Shown here piece after piece: positions 9,402 through 48,450 of a stretch of DNA of 64,000 nucleotides. The DNA is from Candidatus Thorarchaeota archaeon. Its GTDB lineage: Archaea; Asgardarchaeota; Thorarchaeia; Thorarchaeales; Thorarchaeaceae. Position 1 is the first letter of the stretch; every line of letters begins with the position of its first letter. The position numbers were made by a program, and so were the translations under genes. The stretch is taken from positions 160,001-224,000 of the forward strand of contig RDOC01000002.1 of NCBI GenBank assembly GCA_011364985.1, given 5' to 3'. Under the pieces are notes generated by a model. It did no database searches, was not told the origin of the DNA, and saw only the letters and a program-made list of their open reading frames with translations.

Positions 9402-9598
9402 CGGAGCGTAGCTCAATCTGGCAGTCTTGTGCACATCAGTGTACTCGGCCATTAGCAATGGACTGTAGAGAGCGGCCATCGTGACAGCTGTTCGCAGCTA
9501 TCCATCGGTTGCCGGTTCGGCACGATTACCTGCGAATTGTGCGCCGAAAAAATCGCATGTGAATTCCACAAGTGATGGCAATCCGGCCGCTCCGACCA
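9402..9598 (+). tRNA. tRNA-Tyr(GTA) with introns 9425-9453, 9469-9499 and probably 9519-9548 and 9552-9581
   Basis: Acceptor CGGAGCG/CGCTCCG (C1:G72), A73, encoded CCA; ATGGA-CT-GTA-GA-TCCAT; GCCGG/CCGGC T stem; splices to a 77-nt cloverleaf. Confidence 0.93.
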
Positions 9599-9632
9599 TC
9601 CTTTCTTATCCCTACCTTAACCGAGAAGCCAT

Positions 9633-10290
9633 CTACTTCTTCTGCCCAATTGTGATGCCACGGCTAACAATCTCCTGTTCGTGGATATGAGAGAGTTGTT
9701 CTTCAGTCGCATCTTCAAGCATACGGAAGTAATCAAAGAGAACCTGAAAGACTTCCTTGATTTTGGAGGGTTCTATCCCTAATTCAAGGAGGGTTTTTGT
9801 GGTGTTCGGTTGTTGTTTTTCAAACAGCTCTCGTCTTCTTCGTATCCACGCCTTTCGTTCCATGAAGTCGAATCTTGTGTCAGAGAGTGTGAATACCGAG
9901 TACCAACCGTGGCATCTGATATTCGCTAAACCGACCTTTTCGAAGAAATCCGGGTAGGAATAGTAAAAGGGGTTCTCCTGTTTGAGGTTGTCAAAGGCTT
10001 CTGTTCTTCTTAGAGACATGATGACATTGTATTGACAGAGTGTGTCAAATGCTTCTTCCACAGACTTATCGGGTACGAAATGTCGAGAATCAAGAGCGGG
10101 CTCGATGCAGACGACATATCTCCCCTTTCGAACTGCTCGCTTCATTCGTTCAATTGCAATCAATGGCCTTGGGAGATTGTGGATAACAATATGTGAAACG
10201 GTGATATCAAATTCATCATATAGGCTGAGTTCTTCTAGGGGAACCTAGAAGAACTGAAAGGGTATGTAGACAAATTGACATCTCCCTATC
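9633..10290 (-). pseudogene. Class I SAM-dependent methyltransferase remnant
   Basis: EFDITVSHIVIHNLPRPLIAIERMKRAVRKGRYVVCIEP motif; upstream in-frame TAG inside an inverted duplication; N-terminus degraded. Confidence 0.65.
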
Positions 10291-10478
10291 GATAGTTCAT
10301 TATTTTAGCAATAAGTACTCTTCCTAGAAATGCTGTTGATTTGCATACAAGTTGGGACAAATCCGGTTCTTCTCAAATACCCTTGATTACTTTCGGATGA
10401 ATTTACAGCATTCCAATTTTTTTCCCCCAAATAGAGTGACTTATCTATTCCAGAATAGAAAGAGAACCTGATAATTCT

Positions 10479-11390
10479 ATGAGAATCACACTGAAAGCAT
10501 GCCTTCCATTCTCCCTCTATTCCACCGTAAGATCTCATGGCTGGCACCAGATGGCTCCATTCTCATTCAATACTGAACCTCTAGTTCTTGAGTATGTTCT
10601 TCAGCTGGAATCTGGTACGATTGCACAGTTAGAAATCAGCGAAACAGCAGATGGAGTTAGAGCTAGGACAGAAGAGAGTATCACCTCCGAAGAGAAGAAG
10701 GAACTGAAACAAAAAGTCACATGGATGTTGGGTCTGGATCGAGATTTTTCGTCGTTTTACAGGTTGGCACATGATGAACCTAAACTGGCCCGGATGGAAG
10801 CGAAGGCTCAAGGGCGAGTTCTTCGGTCAGCTACATTCTTTGAAGATGTGATCAAGACAATACTCACAACAAACACGCTCTGGGCTGCTACCAAACGAAT
10901 GAATCAGAATCTAGTTGAACAATTTGGGACTCCAGTTAAGAAAGGCTCATCACAGAAGGCATTTCCTACACCAACACGACTGGCAAGGACCAGTGAAGAT
11001 GTCTTGCGAAAGGAAACAAGGCTTGGTTATCGGGCACCATATGTGCTGGAACTAGCAGAGTCTATCAAGAAAGATGATATAAACTTGGAATCTTTTAAGA
11101 ATTCAGACCTCCCTACAGAACAACTTCGCAAGAAGCTTCTTACAATCAAGGGCGTGGGTGATTATGCAGCTGCCAATTTACTGAATATTCTTGGCCGCTA
11201 TGATTATCTTCCAATCGACTCTTGGGCATTGAAAGTCGTTTCATTTGAATGGTACAACGGGGCTTCTATTGGAAAAAAAGAGGTTGAAACTGCTTTCGAA
11301 CACTGGGGCGATTGGAGAGGTTTGGCTTTCTGGTTCTGGGACTGGTCATATTATAAGAAAAGTGAAAAGGAGTCTGATGTAGAAATGTAG
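10479..11390 (+). CDS. HhH-GPD DNA glycosylase (AlkA/OGG1-like)
   Basis: FPTP, LGYRAPY, LLTIKGVGDYAA (HhH), LPID. Confidence 0.88.
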   Translation: MRITLKACLPFSLYSTVRSHGWHQMAPFSFNTEPLVLEYVLQLESGTIAQLEISETADGVRARTEESITSEEKKELKQKVTWMLGLDRDFSSFYRLAHDEPKLARMEAKAQGRVLRSATFFEDVIKTILTTNTLWAATKRMNQNLVEQFGTPVKKGSSQKAFPTPTRLARTSEDVLRKETRLGYRAPYVLELAESIKKDDINLESFKNSDLPTEQLRKKLLTIKGVGDYAAANLLNILGRYDYLPIDSWALKVVSFEWYNGASIGKKEVETAFEHWGDWRGLAFWFWDWSYYKKSEKESDVEM

Positions 11391-11494
11391 GTCTGTGGAT
11401 GGCATGGTTTTCTTTTCTCATTGTGTACGACATCTTTTCTTCGTAGAGGCTAACAAGGATGGATACTTGTATTGACAGATGCATTCCTTCTCAT

Positions 11495-13501
11495 TCAGTC
11501 ATCATTATCAGGATAGGGGAGCCTGATCTGGCTCAGCATGGCTGAAACATCGTCATTCCAAGTGTCGTCTTCGTTGAGTATTCGTTGGTAGAATCTCCAT
11601 GAATAACTTCTGTAGGATACGACACGGTAACAAGACAAAGCCAAATCTTGTTCTGCAGCCTTCCCTGGCAATTCTATCATTATTTGGCGAGCAATTGAGG
11701 GTGGAACTCGGGCCATTATCAATGACCATCTTCCCCCTCTTGCTACAAAGACTGTAGCTGAAGGTGAATGTTTCAAAAACCCTTGGACAAATGAACAAAT
11801 CTGACCAGATCGACCCTGTGCAATCAATGCAATTGTCATATGATTTCGAAATACAGGTGTATAAGATATATCAACGACAGTCTTCTTTTTCATTTCCATA
11901 ATGGCATCAAGTAGCTCTTCTCTTGTAAGGCCAAGTTTCTGCAGGTATTCCAGTTGTTCAAACGATGCCAAATATCCAAGATTTGCTGTTGCATCAAGGC
12001 ATTTGACCCATTTTCGCTTTGGCTGATATGGTTTTTGTCCTATCCATGTACCAAATTCACTTTCGAGTTTCTTTAGAGTTTGATTTCCAAGCAATGAGTT
12101 TTGTATTCGCTTGAAAGAAACTCTCCAGCTATTTTCATGGAAGTCATAGAGATTTGCATTAGTAATGCTTGCAGACCAATCTAATGTTATGACATTGGGT
12201 CTAATTTTCTTTACCCGATCCACAGCCAAAGGTGGCATTTCCATTATCTGGATATGGGGTTCTCTGTAACTCTGTGCTGCAATACTTGCTGACCATTTCA
12301 TATGCTTGTGGGGCCATTGATGTGCTCTTGTAACATCTATCAAACCAACAAGCCCTAAAGCCTGTGGTCTTAAGTGAGTTCTAATTCTTAGACCAGACGC
12401 CAATAGAAGAAATCTGTTTTTCCAATTCTCCTGAGATTCACTAGCTTCTTTTCGGGTGATTGGTAAACTAACAACAATCTTCTTTGTTCTGTTAAGCTCA
12501 GCTGTACATTCTATTGCTTTTCGGAAAACACTTGGTGTTGTTTCTACTATTCTGAACAATGCAGGTGTCCAAGGATTCCATTCTTCGTCACGTATTGCAC
12601 TTGATGGCAAAGCCAATTGATGTCGAGAACTTCTCTGGATTATTCTAACATATGATGGAATATCCATGTCACTAAATTTTCGTATTACATATCCTAGCAA
12701 GAGTGTGTTAAGAACATCTAATGGATAGATTCTGTTGAAATAGTCCACAGGATCTTCTCGTGGAATATCCCATCTTGACACCAGTGTGAAAAATGCCATT
12801 ATCTGTTCTCTGACTATGTCTTCATAGGCTTCAGGAATCAGCTGCTGCATTGTATTTCTGGCATCTTTCCCCAAGCGCAGGTTTGGAATATGCACATCAT
12901 GAATCAGTTTGGTCAGTTGCTCCCAAGTTGGCGATTCACTTACCAAAACACTATTCATCCATTTCTTGGCTTTGATCAAGGATTTCTTAGAAGCAAAGAA
13001 CGATGAATACTCCTCAAACTCTTCTTCAAACTCAAGTGCTCCAACCTCAAAAGGGAAAATTGGATGCGCTTCAAGGACTCTAAAATCCGATTTACTCAGG
13101 ATAACAAGCCAAAGTCTGAAATCATCCACGATTCGGTGAACAAAAACAATAACATTCAATCCAGTTCTATCTATCCTGCTAAACCACCCTTTCGTTGATG
13201 GAGGGTACAATGGTTCTGGTCTATTTCCATCTACTGAATATTGTTTCTCGGTTTTGAGTATAGGATTCAATTTGATATTCAATAGCTGACTTCTCAGAAC
13301 TCTTACCGATTTACTCCCTTTGTCGATAAGAACGTCGCATTCGATTCTGAATACTTTCTCAATGTTAGCATCAATCTTCTTTTCCAGTAGAATCTGTGGA
13401 CCCGTAGTATCATAGGAAAGAAGGGCTCTTTCTGGTCTCCCCTCCACCAATACCTGTACTGGCAGACAGCTGACTTGGTGACCCAAATATCTTCTCTCCA
13501 T
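11495..13501 (-). CDS. Hypothetical protein, 668 aa; possible C-terminal HTH/AsnC-like region
   Basis: Long uninterrupted ORF; no confident family motif. Confidence 0.7.
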   Translation of the reverse strand: MERRYLGHQVSCLPVQVLVEGRPERALLSYDTTGPQILLEKKIDANIEKVFRIECDVLIDKGSKSVRVLRSQLLNIKLNPILKTEKQYSVDGNRPEPLYPPSTKGWFSRIDRTGLNVIVFVHRIVDDFRLWLVILSKSDFRVLEAHPIFPFEVGALEFEEEFEEYSSFFASKKSLIKAKKWMNSVLVSESPTWEQLTKLIHDVHIPNLRLGKDARNTMQQLIPEAYEDIVREQIMAFFTLVSRWDIPREDPVDYFNRIYPLDVLNTLLLGYVIRKFSDMDIPSYVRIIQRSSRHQLALPSSAIRDEEWNPWTPALFRIVETTPSVFRKAIECTAELNRTKKIVVSLPITRKEASESQENWKNRFLLLASGLRIRTHLRPQALGLVGLIDVTRAHQWPHKHMKWSASIAAQSYREPHIQIMEMPPLAVDRVKKIRPNVITLDWSASITNANLYDFHENSWRVSFKRIQNSLLGNQTLKKLESEFGTWIGQKPYQPKRKWVKCLDATANLGYLASFEQLEYLQKLGLTREELLDAIMEMKKKTVVDISYTPVFRNHMTIALIAQGRSGQICSFVQGFLKHSPSATVFVARGGRWSLIMARVPPSIARQIMIELPGKAAEQDLALSCYRVVSYRSYSWRFYQRILNEDDTWNDDVSAMLSQIRLPYPDNDD

Positions 13502-13665
13502 CTGCAGAGAAATGCCTCAATGCAAATTTATCATTTCCTAATAGAAAGAGAATTGAAATCTCTCAGATGAGAAAAAAAAAGAATGAGGCGGACGTAACAG
13601 AACTCACAATTATCTTGGTATGAATACACCAAGAGCTTCAGAGTGTCTGATACGTCCTACATAGA

Positions 13666-13785
13666 TTAGAAGGTCCAAGGTTCGGGATGAGGGATCTCTC
13701 CCGGATTCAGACCAAAGGTCCAAGGTTCGGGATGAGGGATCTCTCCCGGATTGCTATGACTAAACCTATCTTTGCCAATTGTCAT
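13666..13785 (-). CDS. 39-aa peptide with duplicated Pro-rich core
   Basis: MTIGKDRFSHS-NPGEIPHPEPWTF-GL-NPGEIPHPEPWTF-stop; repeat period is a multiple of 3; T-tract downstream (A run near 13572-13580). Confidence 0.5.
   Translation of the reverse strand: MTIGKDRFSHSNPGEIPHPEPWTFGLNPGEIPHPEPWTF
13670..13752. repeat. Direct repeat, 2 x 38 bp identical, 45-bp period
   Basis: aaggtccaaggttcgggatgagggatctctcccggatt at 13670-13707 and 13715-13752. Confidence 0.97.
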
Positions 13786-14119
13786 TATTCATCAAGAATC
13801 AATGCCCTAATTCCATGCAGAAACACATTCTACAGCTTTTGTTCACAAATCAGTGGTCAAACTTCAAAATATCGCAACATAACATAAGCTGACAAGACGT
13901 TTATGAATACGAGTTAATATACTCGCATAAGAACTTAGAGTATTTGAAGACCTCTGCCCTAGTTTAAAAACGTGATATCTCTATTGCAATGGCAAATCAA
14001 TACAGAGTTATTTCCTCTTTGGTAACTGTTACATATAATAGGTTAGGAACACTCAAAACAAGGTGTTTTACAATAGTTAAGGCACACAGTATACAACTCG
14101 AACAAAAGTAGTAGCTTAT

Positions 14120-14529
14120 CCTATTTCTTCTGAGATGGCTAAGTATGTCAACCTTCGAAGCCAATTCCATTGGTTCTTTGGTACTCCTTGTGATTGGAAT
14201 GTACCAAGCATGCAGATTCGTTGGTCTGGATCAGATTATTAGCTCTAGGATAGAACACAGTCAGAATGAGTTGTAGAATGCTCTTCCGTAGCTAGCATAT
14301 GCTACTAGCACAGTACCAATCTTAGCAAGATGGAAAGCCAAGTAATATATCAGACACCTCTTGGTTTTGTCTCTGAGTACAGCAAACCTCTACTGCTGTC
14401 CATTCATGGCACTTAAAACAGAGATTGCAGCCTTAATGCACTCTCTGACCAAGTTCTCTGGTACAATATCAAGTCTGTATTGCCTGATACTTCTCTCTCC
14501 CTGAATCCCTCATCAATGATCATTGCCAT
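14120..14529 (-). pseudogene. Nitroreductase pseudogene
   Basis: RERSIRQY..VPENLVRECIKAAISVLSAMNGQQ*RFAVL (TAG at the conserved Trp); downstream degraded; 3' end approximate. Confidence 0.7.
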
Positions 14530-14548
14530 AATGGGGGGAGATAAGTGT

Positions 14549-15547
14549 CTATCCTTCGACTTTCTCAATCACGTTTCTTGGAAGCTGAATGGCAAATGTA
14601 CACTCCATATCACCCTTGAGTACTGACTTTATCATCTCCACATCAAGCGGCTGGTCAAGTGCCATCTCCCAGGGCTGGACAGTAAACCCGCCACTACAAT
14701 TGCAAAACGTAGCTGGAATCTCTAATTCATTATTCATGATGGTTTCTCGTGCCCATGCGCAATGACAGGCATAGTATCTCTTCTTCTTCTCATCCTTTTC
14801 ATCTAGATACTCTTTTGCCATGTAGGGAATCTTTGTATGAATTATCTTGTCGCCATTTCGCATTCCAGTCATAACGTCTGGACGATTCTTTACATACTCG
14901 ATAACATCATCGGTAATCATCTGGTTGAAGAACAACCTACCCTCATCTCTATGCTTCTCTAAGTTAGCAATGATCTCAGCTCTCTTGTTAGCAAGGTACT
15001 CGTCAATATCCTTGGCCTTTAGGAACTTCTCTCGCTCCTCTTTGTACCATTCTTTGGGTATGCCATGAGCAGTATCCACAAGGGCCTTTCTACAATCCTC
15101 AGGTGTCAATAGCTTTTCCATCTGGTCTAGTACTGCCTTTGCAACCTTCGGCTTTTCTGTAGATGGCAATCCCAAGGGATTATCAATATCCTTGAAAATC
15201 TCATCACTCTTTCCTTTTCCAGCAACTTCCCCTATCCGTTCGCGAAGTACATCCAATACCTCCGCACCATCGAGTAGTTCCAAGACCGCAAGGTAGAGGT
15301 CGAAGTTCTGAATGAAATATCCATACCTTGAGAGTGCTAGGTAATTGTCATAGGTATTTGTTTCCTCTTCAATTAGCATTTTTGAAAAGTTCCTAACGTC
15401 CATCGAGGTCGCGGACTCAAGAGTTCTCCCAACCTTTTCAACGAATTTTTCAAATCTCTCAATCATTGAGATTGCAGGTACTATCTTCTCCTCGGGAATT
15501 GGTTTCTCCCTATCGGTCAGGTATATTCGATAGCCTTCTTTATCCAT
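14549..15547 (-). CDS. DUF6144-like protein with Cys-rich C-terminal domain
   Basis: YYACHCAW, FCNCSGGF, SVLKGDMECTFAI. Confidence 0.65.
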   Translation of the reverse strand: MDKEGYRIYLTDREKPIPEEKIVPAISMIERFEKFVEKVGRTLESATSMDVRNFSKMLIEEETNTYDNYLALSRYGYFIQNFDLYLAVLELLDGAEVLDVLRERIGEVAGKGKSDEIFKDIDNPLGLPSTEKPKVAKAVLDQMEKLLTPEDCRKALVDTAHGIPKEWYKEEREKFLKAKDIDEYLANKRAEIIANLEKHRDEGRLFFNQMITDDVIEYVKNRPDVMTGMRNGDKIIHTKIPYMAKEYLDEKDEKKKRYYACHCAWARETIMNNELEIPATFCNCSGGFTVQPWEMALDQPLDVEMIKSVLKGDMECTFAIQLPRNVIEKVEG

Positions 15548-15800
15548 TCGTCACACCTCAGGTTTGTATTTCGGCGCTTTGTCTTTGTTTCTTAATGAAA
15601 CACATGCTCGACGCAACCGAGTCAAAACCAGTCTAGCAATAATTGACAGCCAACTCCAATTCGATGTGCCTCTCGAAATGGCGCCAAACCAAGTAATATC
15701 AGAGATAAGTAGTAGACTCGGAATACTGCAAATCCTACAATTTCGTAGATAATATCTCTTGAAGAATGCCAGAAAATGTGTTAGATTTTCACTTATTCGA

Positions 15801-16200
15801 TTAAAAATCATGAATTTCTGCACCTTCTTCTTCAAGCGTATCTTCTATCTCTTTCAATATCTCATTCCTATTCTCAGAACTTATCTTGCGCCCTATCAGA
15901 TTGAATCTAACCTCGTTCTCAATGTCTTCTGAGGATAAGATTTGGGTCTTAACCTCCTCAGAGGGTAAAGATAGTAATGTCAATTCCACAAAGTCTGTTT
16001 CATTCTCCACATTGCACAAATGGACGATGACATCTAGCCTTCTTCTACGCCTACCTTCCTCAAGACGAACACCGACAAATCGCAGTTCAGGGATCTCTTC
16101 TGGAACTACCTCTTCACCCTCCATTTGAATCCAATCAGACTCTGCTGACTCTAGCTTCTCGATAATGCCCCATTATGGCACTCTGAATCCTGGAATACTC
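15801..16200 (-). pseudogene. C-terminal remnant of the TnpB-associated partner protein
   Basis: VHLCNVENETDFVELTLLSLPSEEVK matches VHLCNVEDDTDFTELVLLSLSSELVK in 24597-25034; 5' limit approximate. Confidence 0.7.
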
Positions 16201-16310
16201 AAATAGAATGTGTACCAATCGCAGGCTCACAAGAGATTCTGCGTCGATGTTAACATCTTATCTCCGGTTGGATTCAATATCCACAAGCTGGCTACACTCT
16301 GCTAAGAGCT

Positions 16311-16979
16311 CTCTATGTTGCAATTGGTCGTTTGAAGAACATCAGAAATACAGCGCACAAGGGTAATTTCAAGGGAAGAAAGTTCAGGGGCATGATACAC
16401 TCATGGGCCTTTGCTAGGATTACTGAAAGCCTTAGGCATGGGCTTACTCAGCTTGGGTGGAAGGCTGATGGAAAAAACTCTCGTTTTCGAGTTGTGCCTG
16501 AAATTTAGACTTCTATCATGTACTGGAAGTGTGGAGCTAAGGGAATACGACCCAAACAGAGCTACTTCAGATGCCTTTCGTGTGGTCGCCAGACAAATGC
16601 TGATAGGAATGGAGCCATCAATATCGCCGGACGCCTTATTACGCTTACAAAGTCATTGCACTCTGTGAGAGGACTAGGTAAGTGGGCCGACTCTGTCCAG
16701 AGGACAGGGAAGCGTTCACGACTGAAAGCCCGAAAGAAGAAGCCTTCTCAAGGGAAGTCCTTACTCTCAAGAATGGAACAATCATCAAGTTCCAGAGAGT
16801 CCGCGGCTGTTCACTTTGTTCAATCGGACCTTACCAGTTTCAGCGATGACACTGAAAAGAGTGATCATGACCCCGCCATGGAAAGAACTGTGGAAAAGCT
16901 CTCTGTTGCTGGAAGTGATGCAGCCAGAATTCGACAGGAGAAAGAAGTCAGGTCTTCAGGAGGGATCCCATCCCAATGA
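16311..16979 (+). pseudogene. tnpB: TnpB pseudogene, C-terminal half
   Basis: LYVAIGRLKNIR..HSWAFARIT..VPEI*TSIMYWKC..NADRNGAINIA; collinear with 27029-28705; internal TAG. Confidence 0.88.
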
Positions 16980-24470: not shown

Positions 24471-24578
24471 GCCCCTGTAGTGTAGTACGGTCAGTACTCC
24501 AGATGACCTGAAGTATCCGGAATAGCATTCAAGACTGTCACTCTTGAGACCCGGGTTCGAATCCCGGCGGGGGCGCCA
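24471..24578 (+). tRNA. tRNA-Asp(GTC) with 30-nt D-loop intron (24493-24522)
   Basis: GCCCCTG/CGGGGGC, G73, CCA; CAAGA-CT-GTC-AC-TCTTG; relaxed BHB ACGG-TCA / CCGG-AAT restores CGGTCTAGCAT. Confidence 0.95.
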
Positions 24579-26769: not shown

Positions 26770-27028
26770 ATAGACTCCTCGATACTTAGAATCCCTTTTT
26801 ATTTATAAGTAATTCTTCCCTATTTGGAAATCTCCATTACTAATTTAAAGGTCGCATATGGCTTCTTTAAAAGAATAAAGGCCTATTAGATTATTTTGTT
26901 TAATAAGTTTATATTGTTTGTCACAGAAATATGTACGAGTTCAAAGGCTCTACTCTTGACAATAAAGGGAGTGAACTCAACTGACTCAGAAATGGGTCAG
27001 AAGTTTATATTGTATTGGGCGAAAATCA

Positions 27029-28705
27029 ATGGCTCGGTTTCAAGGAACTACAATCAGCGTCAAGGTCCCGATAAACTGGGAAGCAATGACGATGAAATCT
27101 AAGCAGAGGCTTAGACAGATTGTAGGAAGGGACACGAGGGTGATTCGTGCATTTCTCGGGATAATCGAACAACATGAAAACGACTTGCTTGCTGGTCGCA
27201 ATAAGCATCGAATTCATGACGGGAAGCTAGACAAGCTTACCATGACCGCACTCAGAGTCAAGGCTGGCTATGCTCAAAGAGCCAGTGTTCCTCATGACTT
27301 CAAGGCTCGCTTCCCACGCATCTCCCAAAACGAGATAACCGAGTGTCGACAGACTGCTGTTGCTCTCTACAAGAGCTACCTGAAACTTAGAGCTAAAAGA
27401 GGCTTGAATGTTTCACGACCAGCGTCAATCAATCAAAGCCGACGGATACCAAGATGGGTCTTTTCGCAGAGATTCAAACTTCTTGAGAGAAGTACTGCTG
27501 CTTCACGATGGTGGCTTGATATTAGGGACTCTCTTGACTCAGTACAAGAGGGACGAACATTTCATGACCGACTGAATATTCCCCTAAAGATGTCACCTTT
27601 CCACTTCAACCAGATTAAACGAGGCGATGTGAAGGCAGTTCAAATCTTTACTGACCGCTTTGGGAAGTGGTGGGCAACCATTGCGGTTAGGATTTTTACA
27701 GACCTACCTCCCAAAGAGGATCTTCCGATAGGAATCCTTGGAATTGACTTGGGTATTGAAAAGGCAGCCTGCTCGACACTGATTACACCGAAGAAAACAA
27801 GAGAAACAAGGTACTTTGTCCAGCGGCAGAAAGTCAAGGTCATCAAGAAGTACGACAGACTTGTTGCTGACCTTCAGAGGACGATGCAGAATCACAAAAG
27901 TAACGGACTTCCATATGACAAGATGGCGAAAAAGCTCCGGCAGATGAAAGCCAAGAGAGAGAATGTTGCTAAAGAGTACGACCGTGTTCTTCTTCGCCAG
28001 ATTCTCGACTACATCTTAGATCTATCGGAGAAGTATACACTCTATGTTGCCATTGGTCGCCTGAAGAATATACGACTACGTGCTAAACGAGGAAACTACA
28101 AGGGGCGAAGGTTCAGAGCAATGATTCATTCATGGGCCTTTGCTCGAATAACAGATGGCCTCAAACATGGCCTCGCTCAGCAGGGGTGGAAGGTCGATGG
28201 AAAGGATACCTGCTTTAGAGCTGTTCCAGAGGCATGGACTTCTATCATGTGCTGGAAATGCGGGAGCAAGGGAACACGTCCCAAACAGAATTACTTCCAT
28301 TGTACCTCCTGTGGACACAAGACCAATGCTGACAGAAATGGTAGTATCAACATTGCAGCACGTATGCTCATGCTCACAAAGTCACTGCACTCTGTGAGAG
28401 GACTAGGTATGTGGACTAGGGCTGTAGATAGGGCTCGACGTGCGCGACCGAAAGCCCGAAAGAAGAAGTCTTCTCAAGGGAAGTCCTTACTCTCCTCTAA
28501 GGATTCAACATCAAATCTTGGAGAGTCCGCGGCTGTTCACTTTGTCCAGTCGGACTTTGCTGGCTTCAGTGATGAAACAAGCGAGAGTGATGATGACCCC
28601 GTCGTGGCAAATACTGTGAAAGCTCTCTCTGTCATTGAGGGTGATGACTCAATAGCAATACAGGAGAAAGAAGCCAGGTCTTCAGGAGGGATTCCATCCC
28701 GATGA
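27029..28705 (+). CDS. tnpB: TnpB-family RNA-guided endonuclease with rearranged RuvC-II
   Basis: LGIDLG (RuvC-I), VAIGRL (Gly at canonical Glu), VPEAWTSIMCWKCG, CTSCG Zn finger, NADRNGSINIA (RuvC-III). Confidence 0.92.
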   Translation: MARFQGTTISVKVPINWEAMTMKSKQRLRQIVGRDTRVIRAFLGIIEQHENDLLAGRNKHRIHDGKLDKLTMTALRVKAGYAQRASVPHDFKARFPRISQNEITECRQTAVALYKSYLKLRAKRGLNVSRPASINQSRRIPRWVFSQRFKLLERSTAASRWWLDIRDSLDSVQEGRTFHDRLNIPLKMSPFHFNQIKRGDVKAVQIFTDRFGKWWATIAVRIFTDLPPKEDLPIGILGIDLGIEKAACSTLITPKKTRETRYFVQRQKVKVIKKYDRLVADLQRTMQNHKSNGLPYDKMAKKLRQMKAKRENVAKEYDRVLLRQILDYILDLSEKYTLYVAIGRLKNIRLRAKRGNYKGRRFRAMIHSWAFARITDGLKHGLAQQGWKVDGKDTCFRAVPEAWTSIMCWKCGSKGTRPKQNYFHCTSCGHKTNADRNGSINIAARMLMLTKSLHSVRGLGMWTRAVDRARRARPKARKKKSSQGKSLLSSKDSTSNLGESAAVHFVQSDFAGFSDETSESDDDPVVANTVKALSVIEGDDSIAIQEKEARSSGGIPSR

Positions 28706-40568: not shown

Positions 40569-40922
40569 CTACTCATGCTGCCATTTCTCTTTCTCAATCT
40601 CTTCTCTCCTGAGAATTGGAATCACGTAAGTGTATAGGCTTCCGCTTGCAGGATCGTGGGTCACTCTCTTGAGAAGAACATCCAATCGTTTTTCTAGGGG
40701 CTGCATGTCAAAAGACCTTGTTATTAACGCCAAATTGGCGTCTTTGTCGGTAATGAATAGACTGACCATCATCAAAGTATGAGAGGAATTGAGACCCCTT
40801 ATTCCATTCATCACCCCGTTCGCCAAATCTATTGCCTGCTGACGAACATCATCGTTTCTAGGTACAGTTCTTCTATCATGGATGATAAATCCATCTGACT
40901 CAAAATCAAATTGTAGTCCCAT
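40569..40922 (-). CDS. Hypothetical protein, 117 aa
   Basis: GGAGGT SD before ATG; TTTATAT box upstream. Confidence 0.7.
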   Translation of the reverse strand: MGLQFDFESDGFIIHDRRTVPRNDDVRQQAIDLANGVMNGIRGLNSSHTLMMVSLFITDKDANLALITRSFDMQPLEKRLDVLLKRVTHDPASGSLYTYVIPILRREEIEKEKWQHE

Positions 40923-41963
40923 AGACCTCCGTATTTATCCAAGGCATATAAACACCGAATCACATTTGCATTGCAGATATCTCTGGATAAGAAATCCTGA
41001 CGAAAGGATTATCATGGAATCGCATTCATATTAGGATGGTGGGGTTTCAATCATGAGAGGAAGAATCATGCTATCTCGGTTACTTGCTGTTGCCTCTGCA
41101 ATCGGAATCGTAGTATCCGCAACACTCACTATGATTGCTTGGGGACTATGGAGTTCTGCTGTTCGTTCAACATTCAACACCCTCATGCAATTCTTTGTTA
41201 TCATCTTCTTCATTTCATTACCTCTTGGGATGTCCTAGAGGTCATCGAGAACCAACATGCTGAGGATGAGGGGCAAGGTCTAGAACTGGCATGATACGCT
41301 ACAGCAAATGCGGATGAATATTACTCCTACGTATTTGGGCGCCTTTTTAGCCCGTATTTTGACCTTGATCAAGCGGCCTTTTATAGTTGCATAGTACATC
41401 TTTCCTGTTTTGTGGCCAATTAAAGGAAGTTCACTCTTCCGAATCCGAAACAAAGCCAGGTTCAACAATACCATTAGAGACAGCATTCTCAATACGCTTT
41501 CTGTTTGATGCCGCTATTAGTAGAACTTGAATCAATATGCAATCAAAAAGGAGAAACACATTGAAGCCCACAATGATTGCCGATAGCAGGGATACAATCT
41601 CGGGTAATACAAGGATGAAAAGTGCCCTTGAAAGGACAACCTGAAGACCGAGTATAGAATCCAACTTCTTTCTGTATCTTACACCCTCAATACAGTCGAA
41701 CAAATCTGTACCTATGCTGAATTAACAGGCGTTAGTCATGCTCATCAGGCTTGAGTTCATTTTTTCAAACAAGTATAAGAATTTTTTAGATTCAAATTTG
41801 AGCTTCTCAAATGCATATTCTTCTCTCAGAAAAATCACAGTTATGGATGGCTAACATTGCTTAACGGAAAACTCTAAAAGCGACTCCCAAACCTTCAGGC
41901 TAGTTTCCATCAGATGACTTGCTCATCTAAAGGTGGAAATCATGAGACGTGGTGTTTCAAATA

Positions 41964-43292
41964 ATGAGTAAAGAAAAGGAGCACCTCAATCTAGTAGTAA
42001 TCGGCCACGTCGACCACGGCAAGAGTACGATGACCGGCCGATTGCTCTACGAGACAGGTGCTGTTGACGAACGAACCTTCCAGCAGCACAAAGCTGAGGC
42101 TGAGAAGCTAGGAAGGCCTTCCTGGGCCTGGGCTTTCGCGCTGGACAGGCTGAAGGAAGAGAGAGAACGCGGTCTCACGATTGACATTGCATTCTTCAAG
42201 TTCCTAACTAACAAATACTACTACACCATTATCGATGCCCCTGGTCATAAAGACTTCATTAGCGCTGCGTGATTTCCACTCAGCGGTGGAAAAAACATGA
42301 TCACGGGGGCCTCACAGGCTGATGTTGGTTTATTGGTAGTCAGCGCAAAGCGTGGTGAGTTTGAGGCTGGTGTTGGTCCTGGTGGACAGACAAAGGAGCA
42401 TGCTTATCTTGCTATGACCCTTGGCGTGCCAAGCCTTATTGTCTGTATCAACAAGATGGATGATGACAGTGTCAAATTCAGTGAAGACCGTTACAAAGAG
42501 GTCAAGGAAGAAGTCGAAGGTTTCTTGAAGAGCATTGGCTACAAAACTGAGAAGATTCCTTTCATCCCCACTGCTGCTGTTGATGCATGCAACCTGAAGG
42601 TGAAAACTCCTGAGAAGACCCCATGGTACAATGGTCCCTGCTTGCTGGAGGCTCTTGATGAGGTAGAGCTTCCACCGAAGCCAACCGACAAGCCATTGCG
42701 CTTGCCACTGAATGATGTCTACTCAATCAAGGGGGTTGGCACTGTGCCTGTTGGTCGTGTTGAAACCGGTATCATGAAAGTTGGCCAAAAGGTCATATTC
42801 ATGCCTCCAAATAAGACTGGTGAAGTCAAGTCCATCGAGATGCATCATGAACAACTCAAAGAGGCAGTTCCCGGAGACAACATTGGATTCAATGTCCGAG
42901 GTGTCGAAAGGAAGGACTTAGGTCGCGGTGACGTTGCTGGACCTGATAGCGATCCACCAACAGTAGCTGCTGATTACACTGGCCAAATAATGGTCATTCA
43001 ACATCCAACAGCTATTACTGTCGGTTACACTCCAGTCATTCATGCTCATACTGCTCAAGTTGCCTGTAGATTCGACCAGATTTTGCAAAAGCTTGATCAA
43101 CGCAGCGGACAGGTCATTGAAGAGAACCCAGACTTCGTTAAGAAAGGGGAGTCTATGATTGCCAAGCTAGTGCCTCTCAAGCCGATGTGCATTGAAACCT
43201 ACAAGGACTTCCCACAGCTCGGCAGATTTGCTGTTCGTGATATGGGCATGACCGTTGCGGTTGGTGTCGTGACCAAGCTCACAAAGAAGTAG
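41964..43292 (+). CDS. tuf: Elongation factor 1-alpha, join(41964..42261,42292..43292), 432 aa
   Basis: [35 protein letters not shown]; interrupted by a 30-nt BHB intron. Confidence 0.96.
42262..42291 (+). other. 30-nt BHB intron in EF-1alpha mRNA
   Basis: Helix TCAT/GTGG, bulges TA^G and AA^A, intron stem CGCTG/CAGCG; contains in-frame TGA. Confidence 0.9.
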
Positions 43293-43310
43293 TTCAACAT
43301 ACAACCAGAA

Positions 43311-43350
43311 GAACCGGGTCGCAAGACCCGTGTTCATTTCTCTTTCTTTA
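43311..43350 (+). terminator. Hairpin plus pyrimidine tract after EF-1alpha
   Basis: gaac-cgggtc-gcaa-gacccg-t-gttc then tttctctttcttt. Confidence 0.7.
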
Positions 43351-43443
43351 TAGAACCATTCTCGGACAATGGGTTCGAGGCAAAAGGTGATTAGATGCCA
43401 ATCTCATCATTAGCTTAGGTTCAGCAACACGGAGAAATACCTG

Positions 43444-43869
43444 ATGATGGAAGATGACTCCTATTTCTATCCCAATAATCAACAAGGACCTTCAAGTAAT
43501 ACTGGCAGATGGATAGTATTCGCCACCGTTACAGCGCTTGCAATCATTCTGACACTAGCCATGCTTTCTATCACAACAGCTGAGAACTACCTCTACGCCA
43601 TTTTTGGGATTCTTCCTATGATAGCCTTTCTCCTATATGCGGCATACAAATGGGCTCAGGGGCGCTCAATCGCACCTACAGATATTCAAGAAGATGACAA
43701 AATCTTCAATCACATGAGACGCCATGCTCTACCAGCAGAACACGTTGGAGATCTGGATATGTATCGCTGTCCTGACTGTGGTCTTTCTTTCGAGTTGAGC
43801 AATGCAGTAGTCGTTGATGACAAAGTTGTGAATTGCCCCTTTTGCAATACAAGATTGTACATCGAATGA
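43444..43869 (+). CDS. Two-TM membrane protein with C-terminal Zn ribbon
   Basis: CPDCG..CPFCN. Confidence 0.75.
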   Translation: MMEDDSYFYPNNQQGPSSNTGRWIVFATVTALAIILTLAMLSITTAENYLYAIFGILPMIAFLLYAAYKWAQGRSIAPTDIQEDDKIFNHMRRHALPAEHVGDLDMYRCPDCGLSFELSNAVVVDDKVVNCPFCNTRLYIE

Positions 43870-43908
43870 TGTCCTATATCATGACCTACGTTTTGGCATT
43901 ACTTCCAT

Positions 43909-43963
43909 AGTCACAAATTGTGACTCCAGCTTGTGACCCCACATTGTGGCTTCGCTATATATA
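43909..43963 (+). promoter_or_regulatory. Candidate operator repeats plus TATA box
   Basis: Palindrome agtcacaa-a-ttgtgact; TTGTGRC at 43918, 43931, 43945; TATATATA 43956-43963. Confidence 0.6.
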
Positions 43964-43995
43964 CTGATTCTGAGCAGTATTTCTTGTGAACTATT

Positions 43996-44097
43996 ATGGC
44001 TCTAGCAGCTAATACCCGGATTTCATTCGTGAAGAAGAACACTACCAAGGTCGCCTCGACCGATGCCCTCTACCAGGCGTACCTGTATCGGAGGTAA
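43996..44097 (+). CDS. Small peptide 1 (33 aa)
   Basis: MALAANTRISFVKKNTTKVASTDALYQAYLYRR; paralogous to the next ORF. Confidence 0.7.
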   Translation: MALAANTRISFVKKNTTKVASTDALYQAYLYRR

Positions 44098-44103
44098 ATC
44101 ATC

Positions 44104-44199
44104 ATGGCACTGGTTAAGAACACCAAGGACGCTAAGCGCAAGTATCTTGCAGCGAAGATCTCCACTGACGCTATCACTCATGTCTACTTCATGAGGTAA
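44104..44199 (+). CDS. Small peptide 2 (31 aa)
   Basis: MALVKNTKDAKRKYLAAKISTDAITHVYFMR; GGAGGT SD upstream. Confidence 0.75.
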   Translation: MALVKNTKDAKRKYLAAKISTDAITHVYFMR

Positions 44200-44212
44200 T
44201 GAGGCGGCACCC

Positions 44213-45556
44213 TTGCTATCATCTAGCTCAAATGAAAGCGGTTCCTTCAGACATGTTCTGAGGAACCATGATTATGCACGCCTATGGACTGGGCAGCTAG
44301 TTTCTAACATTGGAGCGGCCATTAGTTCATTAGCACTTCTATTCTATGTTTATCAATTGACCCAGTCTCCCATGGCAATGGCCATATTGGCAATTGTTGA
44401 AACAGCACCAGTTGTGATGTTCGCCGGATTTATAGGCGTCTACATCGATCGTTGGGATAGAAAGACAATCATGATTGTTTCCGACGTTGTTCGTGCAGTT
44501 CTGATTCTTCTTATCCCACTCGCTGGATTTCTTTCCCAAATCATGCCCGCAATCTACTGGGTCTACCTATTCACCTTCCTTTATGCAATAGCAAATGCTT
44601 GGTTCTATCCCGCACGAAATGCTTCAATCCCTAATCTAGTGGAATCAGAGGAGTTGGTCACTGCAAATTCTCTCTCACAGATGACATTTCAAGTGGTCCA
44701 GCTGGCAGTTCCACCTATTGGAGGTGTTCTCGTAGCCCTTCTAGCCCCCAATTATTTTCTTGCATTCGCCATCAATTCCTTGACCTACATCATCTCTGCG
44801 ATAGCATTGCTGAACATTCGTACCTCCCTCTTTCCAGAGGGCATTCCTTCAGAGGAGGAATCTGTTAGCAGGCAAGTTTTGGAGGGTGCCAAATTCGTTT
44901 CTGGTAATATTATTCTTCTCTATCTCTTCGTATTTGCAATCTTATTAGCTTCCTCCTCAGGTATTCTTAATGCTCTATTACTCCCTCATCTTGAGAGTCA
45001 GGTCGGAGTCACCGAAATGGAGTTTGGAATAGTTCTAAGCGCTGGGGCGGCATCCGGTACATTGGTCGCCTTTCTTCTAGGTAAGAAAAAGCGTTTACCA
45101 TACCCTCTCTATATTGTCGCAAGTTCTGGGTTCGTCGCGGGAATAGCCGTGTTCGGGCTTGCTTCAGCGCAGACTTTCTGCGCCATCATTTTTTCTTGGG
45201 CGCTAATTGGCTCCGTAGATGTGATGATTAACATTCCACTTGGAACGTTGATGCAAGAATTAGTTCCGGACAATTATAGAGGACGAATATTCGCTCTTCT
45301 CAATGTCGTCTTCACGGCAATTCAGGTTCTTGGCATGGCAATTGGCGGTGTGTGGGCCGAAGCAATTGGCTCAACCGTGCAACCACTTTTCGCTGCTGCG
45401 ATCGCACTTGTCTTGGTTTCATTGTTAGGCATTTTCGCTGTAGCCAAAGCCAGACTTCATATCACATTAGATATCATGCTGCAAGACCCGGAATCAGAAA
45501 AAGTTGCTAGAGATGAAATCGAGTCTTCAGAGGTCCTGCTTGAAGTGAAAGGTTAA
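44213..45556 (+). CDS. MFS transporter (DHA3/macrolide-efflux-like)
   Basis: LWTGQLVSNIG, GVYIDRWDRKTIMIVSDVVR, VPDNYRGRIF. Confidence 0.9.
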   Translation: MLSSSSNESGSFRHVLRNHDYARLWTGQLVSNIGAAISSLALLFYVYQLTQSPMAMAILAIVETAPVVMFAGFIGVYIDRWDRKTIMIVSDVVRAVLILLIPLAGFLSQIMPAIYWVYLFTFLYAIANAWFYPARNASIPNLVESEELVTANSLSQMTFQVVQLAVPPIGGVLVALLAPNYFLAFAINSLTYIISAIALLNIRTSLFPEGIPSEEESVSRQVLEGAKFVSGNIILLYLFVFAILLASSSGILNALLLPHLESQVGVTEMEFGIVLSAGAASGTLVAFLLGKKKRLPYPLYIVASSGFVAGIAVFGLASAQTFCAIIFSWALIGSVDVMINIPLGTLMQELVPDNYRGRIFALLNVVFTAIQVLGMAIGGVWAEAIGSTVQPLFAAAIALVLVSLLGIFAVAKARLHITLDIMLQDPESEKVARDEIESSEVLLEVKG

Positions 45557-45566
45557 AGCTGGACCC

Positions 45567-45603
45567 GGGCGAGAAGGTCAAAGTCAATCTTCTCGCCCAT
45601 TTA
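45567..45603 (+). terminator. Hairpin after the MFS gene
   Basis: gggcgagaag/cttctcgccc 10-bp stem then attt. Confidence 0.55.
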
Positions 45604-45714
45604 ATTCCAGTAGTATAGTTTCCAGTCTTTCTGGACTGAAGAATCTTTAAGTAAGCCTCCTCGAAAAGGCCCAGTCATTCTTCACATTGATACCCAAGAA
45701 GGCGCATTAATCCA

Positions 45715-47514
45715 ATGCCAAGGACGGGAATTCTTAACGAACGCTTGATGCTTTACATTCTTGCTGGAGTTGTTGGTCTTGCTTCAGGCCTGACAGCAGT
45801 ATTGTTCAGGTGGCTCGTTTTGGGTGTAGGTACATTATTTGCTACAATTCCTGTGTTATTTGGTCCGATTGGGTGGATTATTGCACCTATTGTTGGAGGA
45901 TTTGTTGTTGCAATAATTGTAGTCAAGTACGCGCCGGAAGCCAAAGGTCACGGAGTTCCTGAGGTCATGGTTTCTTACTCAACGCAAGGCGGCAAAATGC
46001 GTGTACGTGTCCCTCTTCTGAAGAGCATTGCTTCTGCATTCAGCATTGGATCCGGAGGATCTTGTGGCCGTGAGGGTCCTATTGCTCAAATCGGAGCAGG
46101 ACTAGGTTCTACAATTGCTGGCATGGCAAATATGAATCGAAGGCAAACAAAGACACTGCTTGTTTGTGGACTAGCATCTGGAGTGTCGGCCACATTCAAT
46201 GCCCCTCTTGGAGGTATGATATTCGGAATAGAGGTAATTGCAGGCGGTATTATCGGTTTTTCAATTATACCCGTTATTCTTTCTTGTGTAGTAGCTACTG
46301 CTGTTTCATTGTCAATTCTTGGTGCAGAAGTTTCCTTTCAGGCACCCTATTTTTCTTTGCAGACTCCCCTTGAGCTTGTGTTTTACCTAATACTTGGTCT
46401 TTTACTTGGCATTGGTAGTGTCCTATGGGCTCGTGGGTTCTATAAGATAGAAGACGTACTTGATAAACTCCCGGTTTCCAAGTATTTGCTACCTGCAATT
46501 GGCGGCTTTCTCACCGGAGTTCTTCTTCTTCTCACCATCTATCTTGAAAGCGTCTTTGACTATAGCGGTCTATTCCGACCTGAAGAACCATACTTCCCAG
46601 CAATAGGAGGCATAGGATATGCTTTTACCGATGCAGTTCTTATTGGAACTGTCACTCTTGTTGCTCTTCTCGCTTTTGGCTTTCTTAAAGCCTTGGCCAC
46701 ATCATTTACACTTGGCTCGGGTGGATCAGGTGGCATCTTTGCACCGACTCTATCCATTGGCGCTGCCTTCGGTGGTGCTTTTGGTCTAGTCTTTTCGTTC
46801 CTTTTTCCATGGGCTATCACTCAACCTATGGCTTTCGCTCTTGTAGGAATGGCTGCGCTCTTTGCAGGTTCTGGCAGAGCTCCTATTACTTGCATTGTCA
46901 TTATCATGGAGATGACCAATGATTATTCCCTTATCCTCCCGCTTATGATTTCCGTTTCAGCTTCCTTTCTTGTCGCCTCTCTCCTTGATGAAGAGAGCAT
47001 ATACACACTAAAGCTCACTCGAAGAGGTATAATCATCCGGCAGGGGACTCATGTTGGAACTCTCAAAGCTATTGGAGTCGAAGAAGTAATGACTAAGAAC
47101 CCAACAATTCTACGACCTTCAATGTCTAAGCAGGATGTTCTGAACATTATCGACAAGACTCAGCACACCAAATACCCCGTTGTTGATATGGATGGAAATG
47201 TAATTGGAACACTAATTACTGAAGATTTGTATCACGAGGTAGAAGAAAGCACCGAACAAACCGTGCAACAATTGATGAATCCGAACTTTCTGCATCTTGC
47301 ACCGTCTTCTACTATGGACAGTGCCTTGAGTGCAATGATGGAAAGAAATGAGGGCCATGCTGTGATAGTCAATCCAAGTGCCCCAGCAAAAATGCTCGGT
47401 TTTGTTACCAAGGCAGACGTTCTTCGCGCCTATGAATTGGCAATCTTTAGACTTCAGCAACAAGGTTATGACATAGATGAAATTGGACCCGCTGAGATTA
47501 TTGATGTGGCATAA
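45715..47514 (+). CDS. CLC chloride channel/antiporter with CBS pair
   Basis: GHGVPE, GREGP, GGIFAP, EMT, IY; C-terminal CBS. Confidence 0.95.
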   Translation: MPRTGILNERLMLYILAGVVGLASGLTAVLFRWLVLGVGTLFATIPVLFGPIGWIIAPIVGGFVVAIIVVKYAPEAKGHGVPEVMVSYSTQGGKMRVRVPLLKSIASAFSIGSGGSCGREGPIAQIGAGLGSTIAGMANMNRRQTKTLLVCGLASGVSATFNAPLGGMIFGIEVIAGGIIGFSIIPVILSCVVATAVSLSILGAEVSFQAPYFSLQTPLELVFYLILGLLLGIGSVLWARGFYKIEDVLDKLPVSKYLLPAIGGFLTGVLLLLTIYLESVFDYSGLFRPEEPYFPAIGGIGYAFTDAVLIGTVTLVALLAFGFLKALATSFTLGSGGSGGIFAPTLSIGAAFGGAFGLVFSFLFPWAITQPMAFALVGMAALFAGSGRAPITCIVIIMEMTNDYSLILPLMISVSASFLVASLLDEESIYTLKLTRRGIIIRQGTHVGTLKAIGVEEVMTKNPTILRPSMSKQDVLNIIDKTQHTKYPVVDMDGNVIGTLITEDLYHEVEESTEQTVQQLMNPNFLHLAPSSTMDSALSAMMERNEGHAVIVNPSAPAKMLGFVTKADVLRAYELAIFRLQQQGYDIDEIGPAEIIDVA

Positions 47515-47887
47515 TCGGTAGAACAAACACATCTCAAAAGAAGACCAAGCCTTAGCGTTCTTACATGAAATGTGAATTGAATCTGACACAGTCTTCATGA
47601 GAAAGACCCCTCGCAATTCAACGATTCATGCTGGTTTGTTCTTAGCCTTCTTGATGTCCTGCTCTTTCGATGTAAACTTTGCTAGATTTCTGATGAACTT
47701 TCAAGCCATCTTTGGGATCATGGTAACGATTTCTTTTTCTTTGGTAAAGCGTTTGATACTTCAATTTTGAGTCCATTATCTCGATAATTTACCAAGTCTC
47801 AATTCACTAAATGTTTCAAGCAATTCTCTGCGAGGATTCCATTTCTTACGACCCCATTCTGGTATATTATTATCTTCAAGTGAAAAA

Positions 47888-48118
47888 CGGTCTAAGACCT
47901 TTTTCCACAGGGGAAATTCCAAATCGGGTTGTAGAGAGTCCATCGTTGGTCATACTGCTCAGACGAGTCTTCTCAGTTTCAGTGATAAATCTGGAATGAG
48001 TGGTAATGACCCAATCGTGGAAAGAACTATGGAAAAACTCTTTGTGACTGAGAGTGATGCCTCAGCAGCAGTATAGGAGAAGGAAGCCGGATTTGCAGGA
48101 GGGATTGCATCCCGATGA
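47888..48118 (+). pseudogene. tnpB: Extreme C-terminal remnant of a third tnpB copy
   Basis: RESIVGHTAQTSLLSFSDKSGMSGNDPIVERTMEKL..*EKEAGFAGGIASR aligns to the tails of both other copies. Confidence 0.75.
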
Positions 48119-48258
48119 GTGTGGACAATGCCTTCGCCATTTCTCAGATAATACTGGGTGTTGCGTTGACGCTCGTCTAAGGAAGGGGAGGACACAGAAG
48201 TTTCGATAGTCGGAGTTCACTCGACTTGTAGAAACAGGCCAGGTCTTGGTAAGAAATC
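48119..48258 (+). ncRNA. Putative omega/re-RNA scaffold plus guide, copy 3 (orphan)
   Basis: gacaatgc, acacaga, gtttc..gttcactc..gaaacagg blocks as in copies 1 and 2. Confidence 0.55.
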
Positions 48259-48307
48259 AATGAGAGAATTCAGTTGAACTACTGACTGTATATTGACAGA
48301 AGGAAAA

Positions 48308-48450
48308 TGGCGCTGAGGGAGAGATTTTCAATTCTCGTAGAAACCATGAGAATCTTTGAACTCTCGAGTGCATAGCACACTGGATGTTTGCTGAACTGCT
48401 ACAAGCAATCAATAGCAATCCAGCGCCATACCAGGCTTGGCTACCTCAGC
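48308..48450 (-). tRNA. tRNA-Ser(GCT) with introns at 37/38 (48386-48412) and 59/60 (48325-48354)
   Basis: GCTGAGG/CCTCAGC, G73, CCA, long variable arm; BHBs TTGC/GCAA and TTCA/TGAA. Confidence 0.95.

Follow-up and report, generated by a model that had tools for sequence, protein, structure and literature searches.

Several kinds of intron resemble those described here. In Thermoproteales, transposed tRNA-intron families consist of related short bulge-helix-bulge (BHB) introns in different tRNAs, and the mechanism is given as unknown (Fujishima et al. 2010, reviewed in PMC4090602; re-measured in 10.64898/2026.10.13.758758). Archaeal mRNA splicing is represented in the literature searched by one coding sequence and one 5' untranslated region (UTR), namely the cbf5 pre-mRNA intron of Crenarchaeota (Watanabe 2002; PMC2738675) and the HVO_1309 5' UTR intron of Haloferax (PMC7714728), for both of which splicing has been shown. 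The 16S rRNA genes of Thermoproteales contain hairpin (HP) and homing-endonuclease introns with co-conversion, at loci too different to compare with one another (PMC4496867). Among Asgard archaea, Freyarchaeia, Jordarchaeia and Atabeyarchaeia have heavily interrupted tRNA genes (PMC11291895; 10.64898/2026.10.13.758758), and the arrival of Asgard tRNA introns is named as the central open problem (preprint 10.64898/2026.10.13.758758). The cox1 group I intron of flowering plants spreads horizontally with a co-conversion tract, according to PMC8393795, citing Sanchez-Puerta 2011. We analyzed a stretch of 64,000 nucleotides of a Candidatus Thorarchaeota genome (contig RDOC01000002.1, positions 160,001 to 224,000; hereafter the window), in which three tRNA genes and the gene for elongation factor EF-1alpha are interrupted by eight short introns. 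The results suggest that BHB introns of one design, which are present in tRNA, 16S rRNA and mRNA of Thorarchaeaceae, probably move between lineages and rarely between RNA classes.

The introns of Thorarchaeia are similar to the Thermoproteales tRNA families: both are short, of the BHB type and inserted at numerous non-canonical positions of tRNAs, and both have relatives in different tRNAs. However, 28% of the Thermoproteales introns exceed 80% identity, whereas few pairs do so in Thorarchaeia, where relatives reach mRNA and 16S rRNA and one loop and size unite unrelated arms. Like the cbf5 and HVO_1309 introns, the mRNA members are EndA-type BHB introns of tRNA-intron size that break a conserved motif. 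The cbf5 and HVO_1309 introns, however, each occupy one site in one gene, and have a highly variable internal region and an unclear origin, whereas in Thorarchaeia at least four genes of one genome are interrupted, three EF-1alpha and two hutU sites are patchily occupied with shared flanks, one intron has a tRNA-borne relative, and splicing is inferred. Both Thermoproteales and Thorarchaeia have BHB introns of less than 50 nt at conserved 16S rRNA positions, a site that holds LAGLIDADG introns, and co-conversion, but in Thorarchaeia eight loci share size and loop. Multi-intron tRNA genes with repeated gains and BHB boundaries, missed by annotators, are common to Thorarchaeia and the other Asgard classes; the main texts on those classes treat neither Thorarchaeia nor mRNA nor a loop motif, and report no general arrival route. 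For the cox1 intron, too, lateral gain is recognized from patchy occurrence and a co-conversion tract, but this intron is a ribozyme, has its own endonuclease and leaves its tract downstream, whereas the Thorarchaeia introns are 30 nt long, contain no open reading frame (ORF) and have an upstream tract. Precedents thus exist for every component, in the form of transposed tRNA introns, hairpin 16S introns, mRNA introns and intron-rich Asgard tRNAs. A literature search, with subscription papers mostly outside it, turned up neither a class of common size and loop that spans tRNA, rRNA and mRNA nor an mRNA intron with a relative in a tRNA, and no description of mRNA introns from Thorarchaeia.

The genes and introns concerned are listed below in window coordinates.

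9402..9598, plus strand: tRNA-Tyr(GTA) gene with four BHB introns; 77-nt cloverleaf once the introns are removed; missed by ARAGORN and Rfam
9425..9453, plus strand: Tyr D-arm intron, 29 nt, helix 4/4
9469..9499, plus strand: Tyr canonical 37/38 intron, 31 nt, without the family loop
9519..9548, plus strand: Tyr 56/57 intron, 30 nt, loop CCTGC
9552..9581, plus strand: Tyr 59/60 intron, 30 nt, loop AATTC, helix 3/4
24471..24578, plus strand: tRNA-Asp(GTC) gene with a single D-loop intron, from the cloverleaf search
24493..24522, plus strand: Asp D-loop intron, 30 nt, loop ATGAC
41964..43292, plus strand: EF-1alpha coding sequence in two exons, 41964-42261 and 42292-43292; 432 aa when joined; halves match PRK12317/TIGR00483
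42214..42261, plus strand: upstream exon tract common to the EF-1alpha genes of this genome (G000) and G030, partly paired with the 3' exon
42262..42291, plus strand: EF-1alpha mRNA intron, 30 nt, with an in-frame TGA, loop ATTTC, helix TCAT/GTGG
48308..48450, minus strand: tRNA-Ser(GCT) gene with two BHB introns; the G003 ortholog is intron-free
48325..48354, minus strand: Ser 59/60 intron, 30 nt, loop GTTTC, helix 4/4
48386..48412, minus strand: Ser canonical 37/38 intron, 27 nt, without the family loop

The source genome, G000, is a 1.70-Mb assembly that is 74% complete, and the window corresponds to G000:C15:160001-224000; other G-numbers denote the genomes compared, and the searches for mRNA inserts and for the subfamily pattern described below covered 86 Thorarchaeaceae genomes. 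The EF-1alpha of G000 shares 81-88% identity with entries labeled Candidatus Thorarchaeota, which places the genome in Thorarchaeia. Of the tRNA genes in the window, ARAGORN and Rfam detect tRNA-Lys and a portion of tRNA-Asp and no others; relaxed ARAGORN settings and a loose tRNA finder were of no help. Intron-bearing tRNA genes were searched for by removing BHB-bounded segments and scoring the resulting cloverleaf. An earlier note on this DNA had assigned lengths of 29, 31, 30 and 30 nt (Tyr), 30 nt (Asp), 30 nt (EF-1alpha), and 27 and 30 nt (Ser) to the eight introns. Removal of segments of exactly these lengths gives full cloverleafs and an EF-1alpha of 432 aa; the BHB of the Tyr 59/60 intron is formed only once the 56/57 intron is out. 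All five 30-mers fold, as proposed there, into one nucleotide, a hairpin, a 4-nt helix strand and AA. The single nucleotide, stem, helix and terminal 2 nt are forced by any BHB intron, and the informative features are the fixed 9-bp arm and the 5-nt loop.

These features define a class. The tRNA introns of G000 and of parts of G003, G024 and G030 were curated (n=81), with 6 tRNA genes and 4 introns left out for doubtful automatic parses. Among the non-canonical tRNA introns, 48 of 53 are 29-32 nt long and 29 are exactly 30 nt long; the canonical 37/38 introns range from 14 to 34 nt. In the 30-mers, positions 2-10 pair with positions 16-24 (23-29 of 29 per position, with 4-6 pair types each), and the loop contains A11 in 21/29, T13 in 26/29 and C15 in 20/29 (p<1e-4). 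Of the 4-bp exon-intron helix between two 3-nt bulges that characterizes archaeal BHB introns, 3-4 pairs are formed by 49/51 non-canonical tRNA, 37/37 rRNA and 17/19 mRNA introns, and the mature RNA sequence is regained if the cuts are placed behind the second base of each bulge. The helix strands pair with their own exons, as had been claimed: at 13 rRNA and mRNA sites 49 of 52 pairs are formed, as compared with 25 when the strands are reassigned (p<1e-4). No ribozyme core of group I or II was found in these 30-nt introns, and Rfam finds only tRNA in the window. The 29-32-nt introns contain no ORF; LAGLIDADG is present only in the long introns at 16S site 874 of relatives. Within Thorarchaeaceae the class occupies about 50 non-canonical tRNA, 8 16S rRNA and 5 EF-1alpha/hutU sites.

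The claim of a family common to tRNAs and an mRNA holds, and extends to rRNA. When a pair-aware score, computed in Python and trained on tRNA introns alone, was applied to the genome, the EF-1alpha intron was retrieved blind, ranking 6th in G000 (24.5 bits) and 2nd in 400 kb of G024. No match of 22 bits or more was obtained in a block-shuffled genome, and the best 14 matches in G000 comprise the EF-1alpha intron and otherwise introns of tRNAs or tRNA-like sequences. A match at window position 61186 (minus strand) was rejected as an intron; it lies inside an intact conserved ORF. Three further observations concern tRNA. A degenerate tRNA-Val(GAC)-like sequence (G000:C16, ~26930-27060, plus strand) retains a family intron with the loop ATTTC; tRNA-Asn and tRNA-Ala genes with several more introns (G000:C16, ~187250-187550, minus strand, and 11600-11790, plus strand) were missed by the finder; and the 51/52 intron of tRNA-Ser(GGA) (G000:C11:406279-406308, plus strand) includes a sequence almost identical to the T-arm junction after splicing, resembling a local duplication.

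In the EF-1alpha gene, the two halves correspond to profile positions 1-99 and 102-423 of PRK12317/TIGR00483, and removal of 42262-42291 eliminates the in-frame TGA and joins them. This gene is the only full copy found, and a contig independently assembled from a DNA run, probably of the source sample, covers the insert and shows no difference from it. The same site is filled in G024, G030 and G066; the insert is absent from most relatives. Partial second EF-1alpha copies are located a few kb from the full gene in G017:C2 and G032:C30. The hutU (urocanate hydratase) gene of G000 contains a 29-nt insert, the removal of which restores NYGQMTAGGW. This insert was found by a motif-free census against relatives' proteins, which covered 732 kb of G000, also recovered the EF-1alpha insert and gives a lower bound, because it missed ahcY and porA; these G000 genes contain 32-nt inserts whose removal restores conserved motifs, the porA loop being off-motif. 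A genome-wide scan for BHB shape with frame rescue gave 622 candidates and was discarded as too noisy. Across the 86 genomes, EF-1alpha inserts occur at three sites (4, 1 and 1 genomes) and hutU inserts at two (8 and 5 genomes). All are 29-32 nt long, each breaks the protein by a stop codon or frameshift, and the loop is ATTTC at four of the five sites. In hutU, exons with TAT in place of TAC, a synonymous change, are accompanied by CCAT in place of CCGT in the intron helix strand. Restored frames and this kind of exon-intron covariation suggest that the introns are very probably spliced. Small frameshifting indels without an insert (L308, G076 EF-1alpha; L301, G073 hutU) are probably assembly errors.

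The 16S rRNA genes contain further members. In 31 genes examined, 37 introns of the class are present at 8 sites in 21 genes, including that of G000; 33 of them are 30 nt long, with A11 in 23/33, T13 in 29/33 and C15 in 30/33. By an estimated mapping, most sites lie near E. coli 1340-1390 and 1499, and the site that also holds LAGLIDADG introns corresponds to about E. coli 908. Site 874 is occupied, depending on the genome, by 740-900-nt introns (one with a LAGLIDADG ORF), 41-47-nt forms or 30-mers (L345, L349, L350, L338, L352, L353). Hairpin inserts of 30-33 nt at the 3' end near position 1489 (L334, L340, L343, L346, L348, L349) were excluded for their weak boundaries. In addition, site 940 of the G014 16S gene (L333) contains a 616-nt insert with a 183-aa ORF and a poor BHB fit, a 5S rRNA gene (G000:C15:39957-39988, minus strand) contains a 32-nt BHB-like insert, and 23S rRNA matches range from ~3080 to 3870 nt, a spread that suggests more introns. 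The search of this genome and its relatives for further members, for which the earlier note had called, was productive in 16S rRNA, hutU, EF-1alpha and tRNAs.

Occupied and empty alleles of EF-1alpha and hutU, the comparison of which had been proposed as a check, both exist among the 86 genomes, and the carriers are polyphyletic. On the hutU and EF-1alpha trees they are scattered, in many cases next to a fully supported non-carrier sister, and the EF-1alpha site is occupied in four genera. The EF-1alpha introns of G000 and G030 have identical cores and agree at 18/18 arm positions, in genes that are 78% identical. In the tract upstream of this intron, 14 of 16 synonymous codons are identical between the two genomes, as compared with 0.49 gene-wide, and no excess is detected downstream. 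Similarly, hutU carriers of different genera mostly show 6/8 to 8/8 upstream synonymous identity against about 0.39 gene-wide, G023 being weaker. Conversely, a hutU carrier and its sister non-carriers share only 1/7 upstream synonymous codons, against gene-wide values of 0.78 and 0.70; G014 and its sister G001 differ in 6/7 tract synonymous codons (gene-wide 0.78), and G001 resembles its intron-free clade. The common upstream tract of carriers is 30-48 nt long, and at each site the upstream excess is greater than in any other segment of the gene. At hutU site 610 the orthologous introns agree at 4-18 of 18 arm positions. The scattered carriers and the shared tract point to lateral gain with co-conversion of the flanking exon, so that a homing-like spread between lineages at fixed sites is very probable. 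Thus, of the proposal that a mobile micro-intron is spreading, the spread between genomes at the same site with an exon tract is the best documented; the parts that concern the trio, TTCA and the direction, considered below, are not supported.

That trio consists of the EF-1alpha, Tyr 59/60 and Ser 59/60 introns, whose 11-nt cores do lie at positions 8-18, as had been pointed out. The likeness exceeds chance: the EF-1alpha and Tyr 59/60 cores agree at 10/11 positions (p=0.001 against shuffled loops, but 0.015 when the loops come from the family pool). The arm positions, however, agree at only 5-7/18, close to the non-orthologous background (mean 4.7). With arms at background and only the loop and the closing pairs in common, the trio represents the class motif rather than close relatives. 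At both T-loop sites the TTCA that was reported for all three introns forms the helix (-6..-3), whereas in EF-1alpha it is found at -7..-4 and the helix is TCAT. As a target rule TTCA was rejected; it is an invariant T-loop sequence and is present at 0/8 rRNA and 1/5 mRNA sites.

A closer relative of the EF-1alpha intron is located outside the window, in the variable arm of tRNA-Leu(CAG) (G000:C17:130580-130609, minus strand). The two agree at 15/18 arm positions and 19/23 core positions, a best match with p=0.0012 within the genome. Arm identities were compared with a null in which base pairs are permuted and flipped; since the null is simple and kin are non-independent, p values are guides. 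The pattern of this pair retrieves three more tRNA introns from the 86 genomes, namely those of Leu(GAG) in G082 and G094 and one in the T-loop (57/58) of the initiator tRNA of G065. It also retrieves the EF-1alpha introns of G030 and G066, and two further matches are attributed to chance (control: two). In the alignment of this subfamily, the hairpin is kept while the helix covaries with each exon. When introns retrieved by the pattern are removed beforehand, two cross-class site pairs agree at 15/18 or better, as compared with 0.11 expected (p=0.008), and 16 agree at 12/18 or better, as compared with 7.2 (p=0.005). The second close pair is the 48/49 intron of tRNA-Gly of G000 with a 16S site of G084 (15/18), and all four bases of the tRNA-Gly helix strand can pair at that 16S site. 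Together with the Leu(CAG) and Leu(TAG) introns of G030 (16/18), pairs at least 80% alike therefore exist in different RNA types, as in Thermoproteales; a large and recent family share was not found, the relatives being a handful of 71 sites with a mean arm identity of 4.7/18. The subfamily pattern gave no match in viral contigs and none outside Thorarchaeaceae in 224 other Asgard genomes. Of 28 matches in metagenomes, three are G030-type EF-1alpha introns, and the other 25, without EF-1alpha or tRNA context, were taken as chance. These results suggest that transfer between RNA classes is likely to occur occasionally.

G000 encodes RtcB and two EndA proteins (PF01974; genes at C11:364581 and C15:156070). 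One EndA aligns to the Aeropyrum pernix catalytic subunit through the Crenarchaea-specific loop (CSL; K-P-K) and has the catalytic residues. The CSL has been tied to a broad substrate range (PMC12397907). The host is thus predicted, from sequence, to have an EndA able to cut non-canonical sites, plus RtcB. A 558-aa gene for a TnpB/Cas12f-like RNA-guided nuclease (27029-28705, plus strand; NF040570, below the cut-off) is located 500 nt upstream of tRNA-Lys.

The observations may be combined as follows. An intron of one nucleotide, a 9-bp arm, a 5-nt loop A-N-U-N-C, the complementary arm, a 4-nt helix strand and 2 nt, 29-32 nt in total and without an ORF, would be excised by a CSL-type (alpha-beta)2 endonuclease, and the exons would be rejoined by RtcB. 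At a fixed site it would spread between lineages by DNA recombination together with the 30-48-nt upstream tract, which would also supply the exon-exon helix; the comparative evidence for this step is strong. Rarely it would arrive at a new site in another RNA class, where the helix strand would come to suit the new exon. The route favored for such arrivals is that an excised intron is ligated into an abundant transcript and copied back to DNA, probably through unsampled intermediate sites. The tRNAs, rRNA and mRNAs concerned are generally abundant RNAs, every intron is inserted in the sense orientation, and the 16S site can pair with the tRNA-Gly strand; for these reasons an RNA-level route is tentatively preferred, with some doubt. 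Because the loop outlasts the arms, selection appears to maintain it, probably for a role in recognition or folding during splicing or mobility. A bolder version, in which a protein-free 30-nt mobile element uses host EndA and RtcB to enter tRNA, rRNA and mRNA, is copied to DNA and then homes, with the loop as a handle for a host or mobility factor, is conceivable but rather unlikely.

The combination of lateral spread with occasional transfer between classes has several points against it. Most intron pairs share no arm sequence, so that common descent of the whole class is conjectural, and with all genomes pooled the p value of the best tRNA-mRNA match, taken by itself, is 0.03. Such a picture is also expected if the introns arose independently at each site, with the splicing machinery selecting one size and loop and without cross-class transfer. 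Likeness at loop positions 11, 13 and 15 is 0.45, 0.77 and 0.58, against 0.23-0.39 in the arms, which points to selection; the loop also occurs in some canonical 37/38 30-mers, and other Asgard classes have almost no cross-tRNA families (preprint 10.64898/2026.10.13.758758). Independent origin is nevertheless unlikely, because the EF-1alpha and tRNA-Leu(CAG) introns are so similar in one genome, with one-sided changes, a second pair joins tRNA and 16S rRNA, cross-class pairs are in excess, and the pattern of the first pair finds three more tRNA introns against two chance matches. The helix strands of the Leu, initiator tRNA and EF-1alpha relatives pair at only 1-2/4 with each other's sites, so that either intermediates or hairpin-only exchange would be needed. 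The same misfit disfavors direct reverse splicing of whole introns between tRNA sites and EF-1alpha, which the earlier note had named as an example of how an intron could pass from tRNA T-loops into the mRNA; TTCA would be the guide in such a model. A shared loop, abundant target RNAs, the subfamily member in the T-loop of the G065 initiator tRNA and the direct compatibility of the Gly-16S pair are consistent with that model. However, the arms of the trio agree at about background level, TTCA is shifted by one base in EF-1alpha and shows no enrichment at rRNA or mRNA sites, the nearest EF-1alpha relative is in a tRNA-Leu variable arm, and the EF-1alpha site, filled in four genera, is an equally possible donor. 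A PF00078 reverse transcriptase was not found in G000, G030, G024 or G017, four of five genomes searched, all incomplete; G066 has two matches. The model is therefore quite improbable.

Transfer may instead have taken place entirely in DNA, the introns being remnants or passengers of homing-endonuclease introns that home in trans with co-conversion, and the hairpins being swapped by ectopic gene conversion. The range of forms at 16S site 874 and the precedent in Pyrobaculum, where a hairpin intron is co-converted by a neighbor's endonuclease (PMC4496867), are in favor of this possibility; a swap of the hairpin alone would explain common arms with differing helix strands, and the sites lie in conserved motifs. 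On the other hand, no long or endonuclease-bearing form is present at any EF-1alpha, hutU or tRNA site, the long 874 intron ends lack the family loop layout, and the flanks of tRNA-Leu and EF-1alpha are little homologous. A purely DNA-level history is thus a less favored possibility. The upstream tract, although consistent with lateral spread together with flanking exon, also forms an exon-exon helix with the 3' exon, so that selection probably keeps it, explains part of its conservation and may explain its one-sidedness. If this selection alone kept the flanks, the introns could be ancient and vertically inherited with many losses; orthologous introns can indeed diverge strongly, as at hutU 610, and the tract pairs with partners fixed by the amino-acid sequence. 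Dozens of precise losses would then be required, and the tract mismatch between G014 and G001 and the identical G000 and G030 cores already largely refute vertical descent for hutU 610 and for the G000-G030 pair, leaving it very improbable. Finally, RNA runs X16 and X21 gave only distant homologs and no RNA contig of this organism across the EF-1alpha site, and the genomes are metagenome assemblies in which splicing is deduced from DNA. That the mRNA inserts are assembly errors or unspliced pseudogenizing insertions is hardly credible, however, because they recur at the same site in up to eight genomes with compensatory changes, the exons are intact and conserved, and the sole full EF-1alpha copy retains its insert in the independent assembly. 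Movement of one-design BHB introns between lineages and, rarely, between RNA classes is thus probably the best explanation of all these observations.

In practical terms, the inserts affect annotation: EF-1alpha and other genes appear split and tRNAs go unnoticed. Conserved 16S rRNA positions of Thorarchaeia are interrupted as well. A single design over tRNA, rRNA and mRNA, an mRNA intron whose relative sits in a tRNA, and footprints of recombination at protein-gene sites make intron gain testable with defined 30-nt substrates and two known enzymes. If the introns are indeed mobile elements, they would document one way in which protein genes gain introns in the archaeal relatives of eukaryotes.

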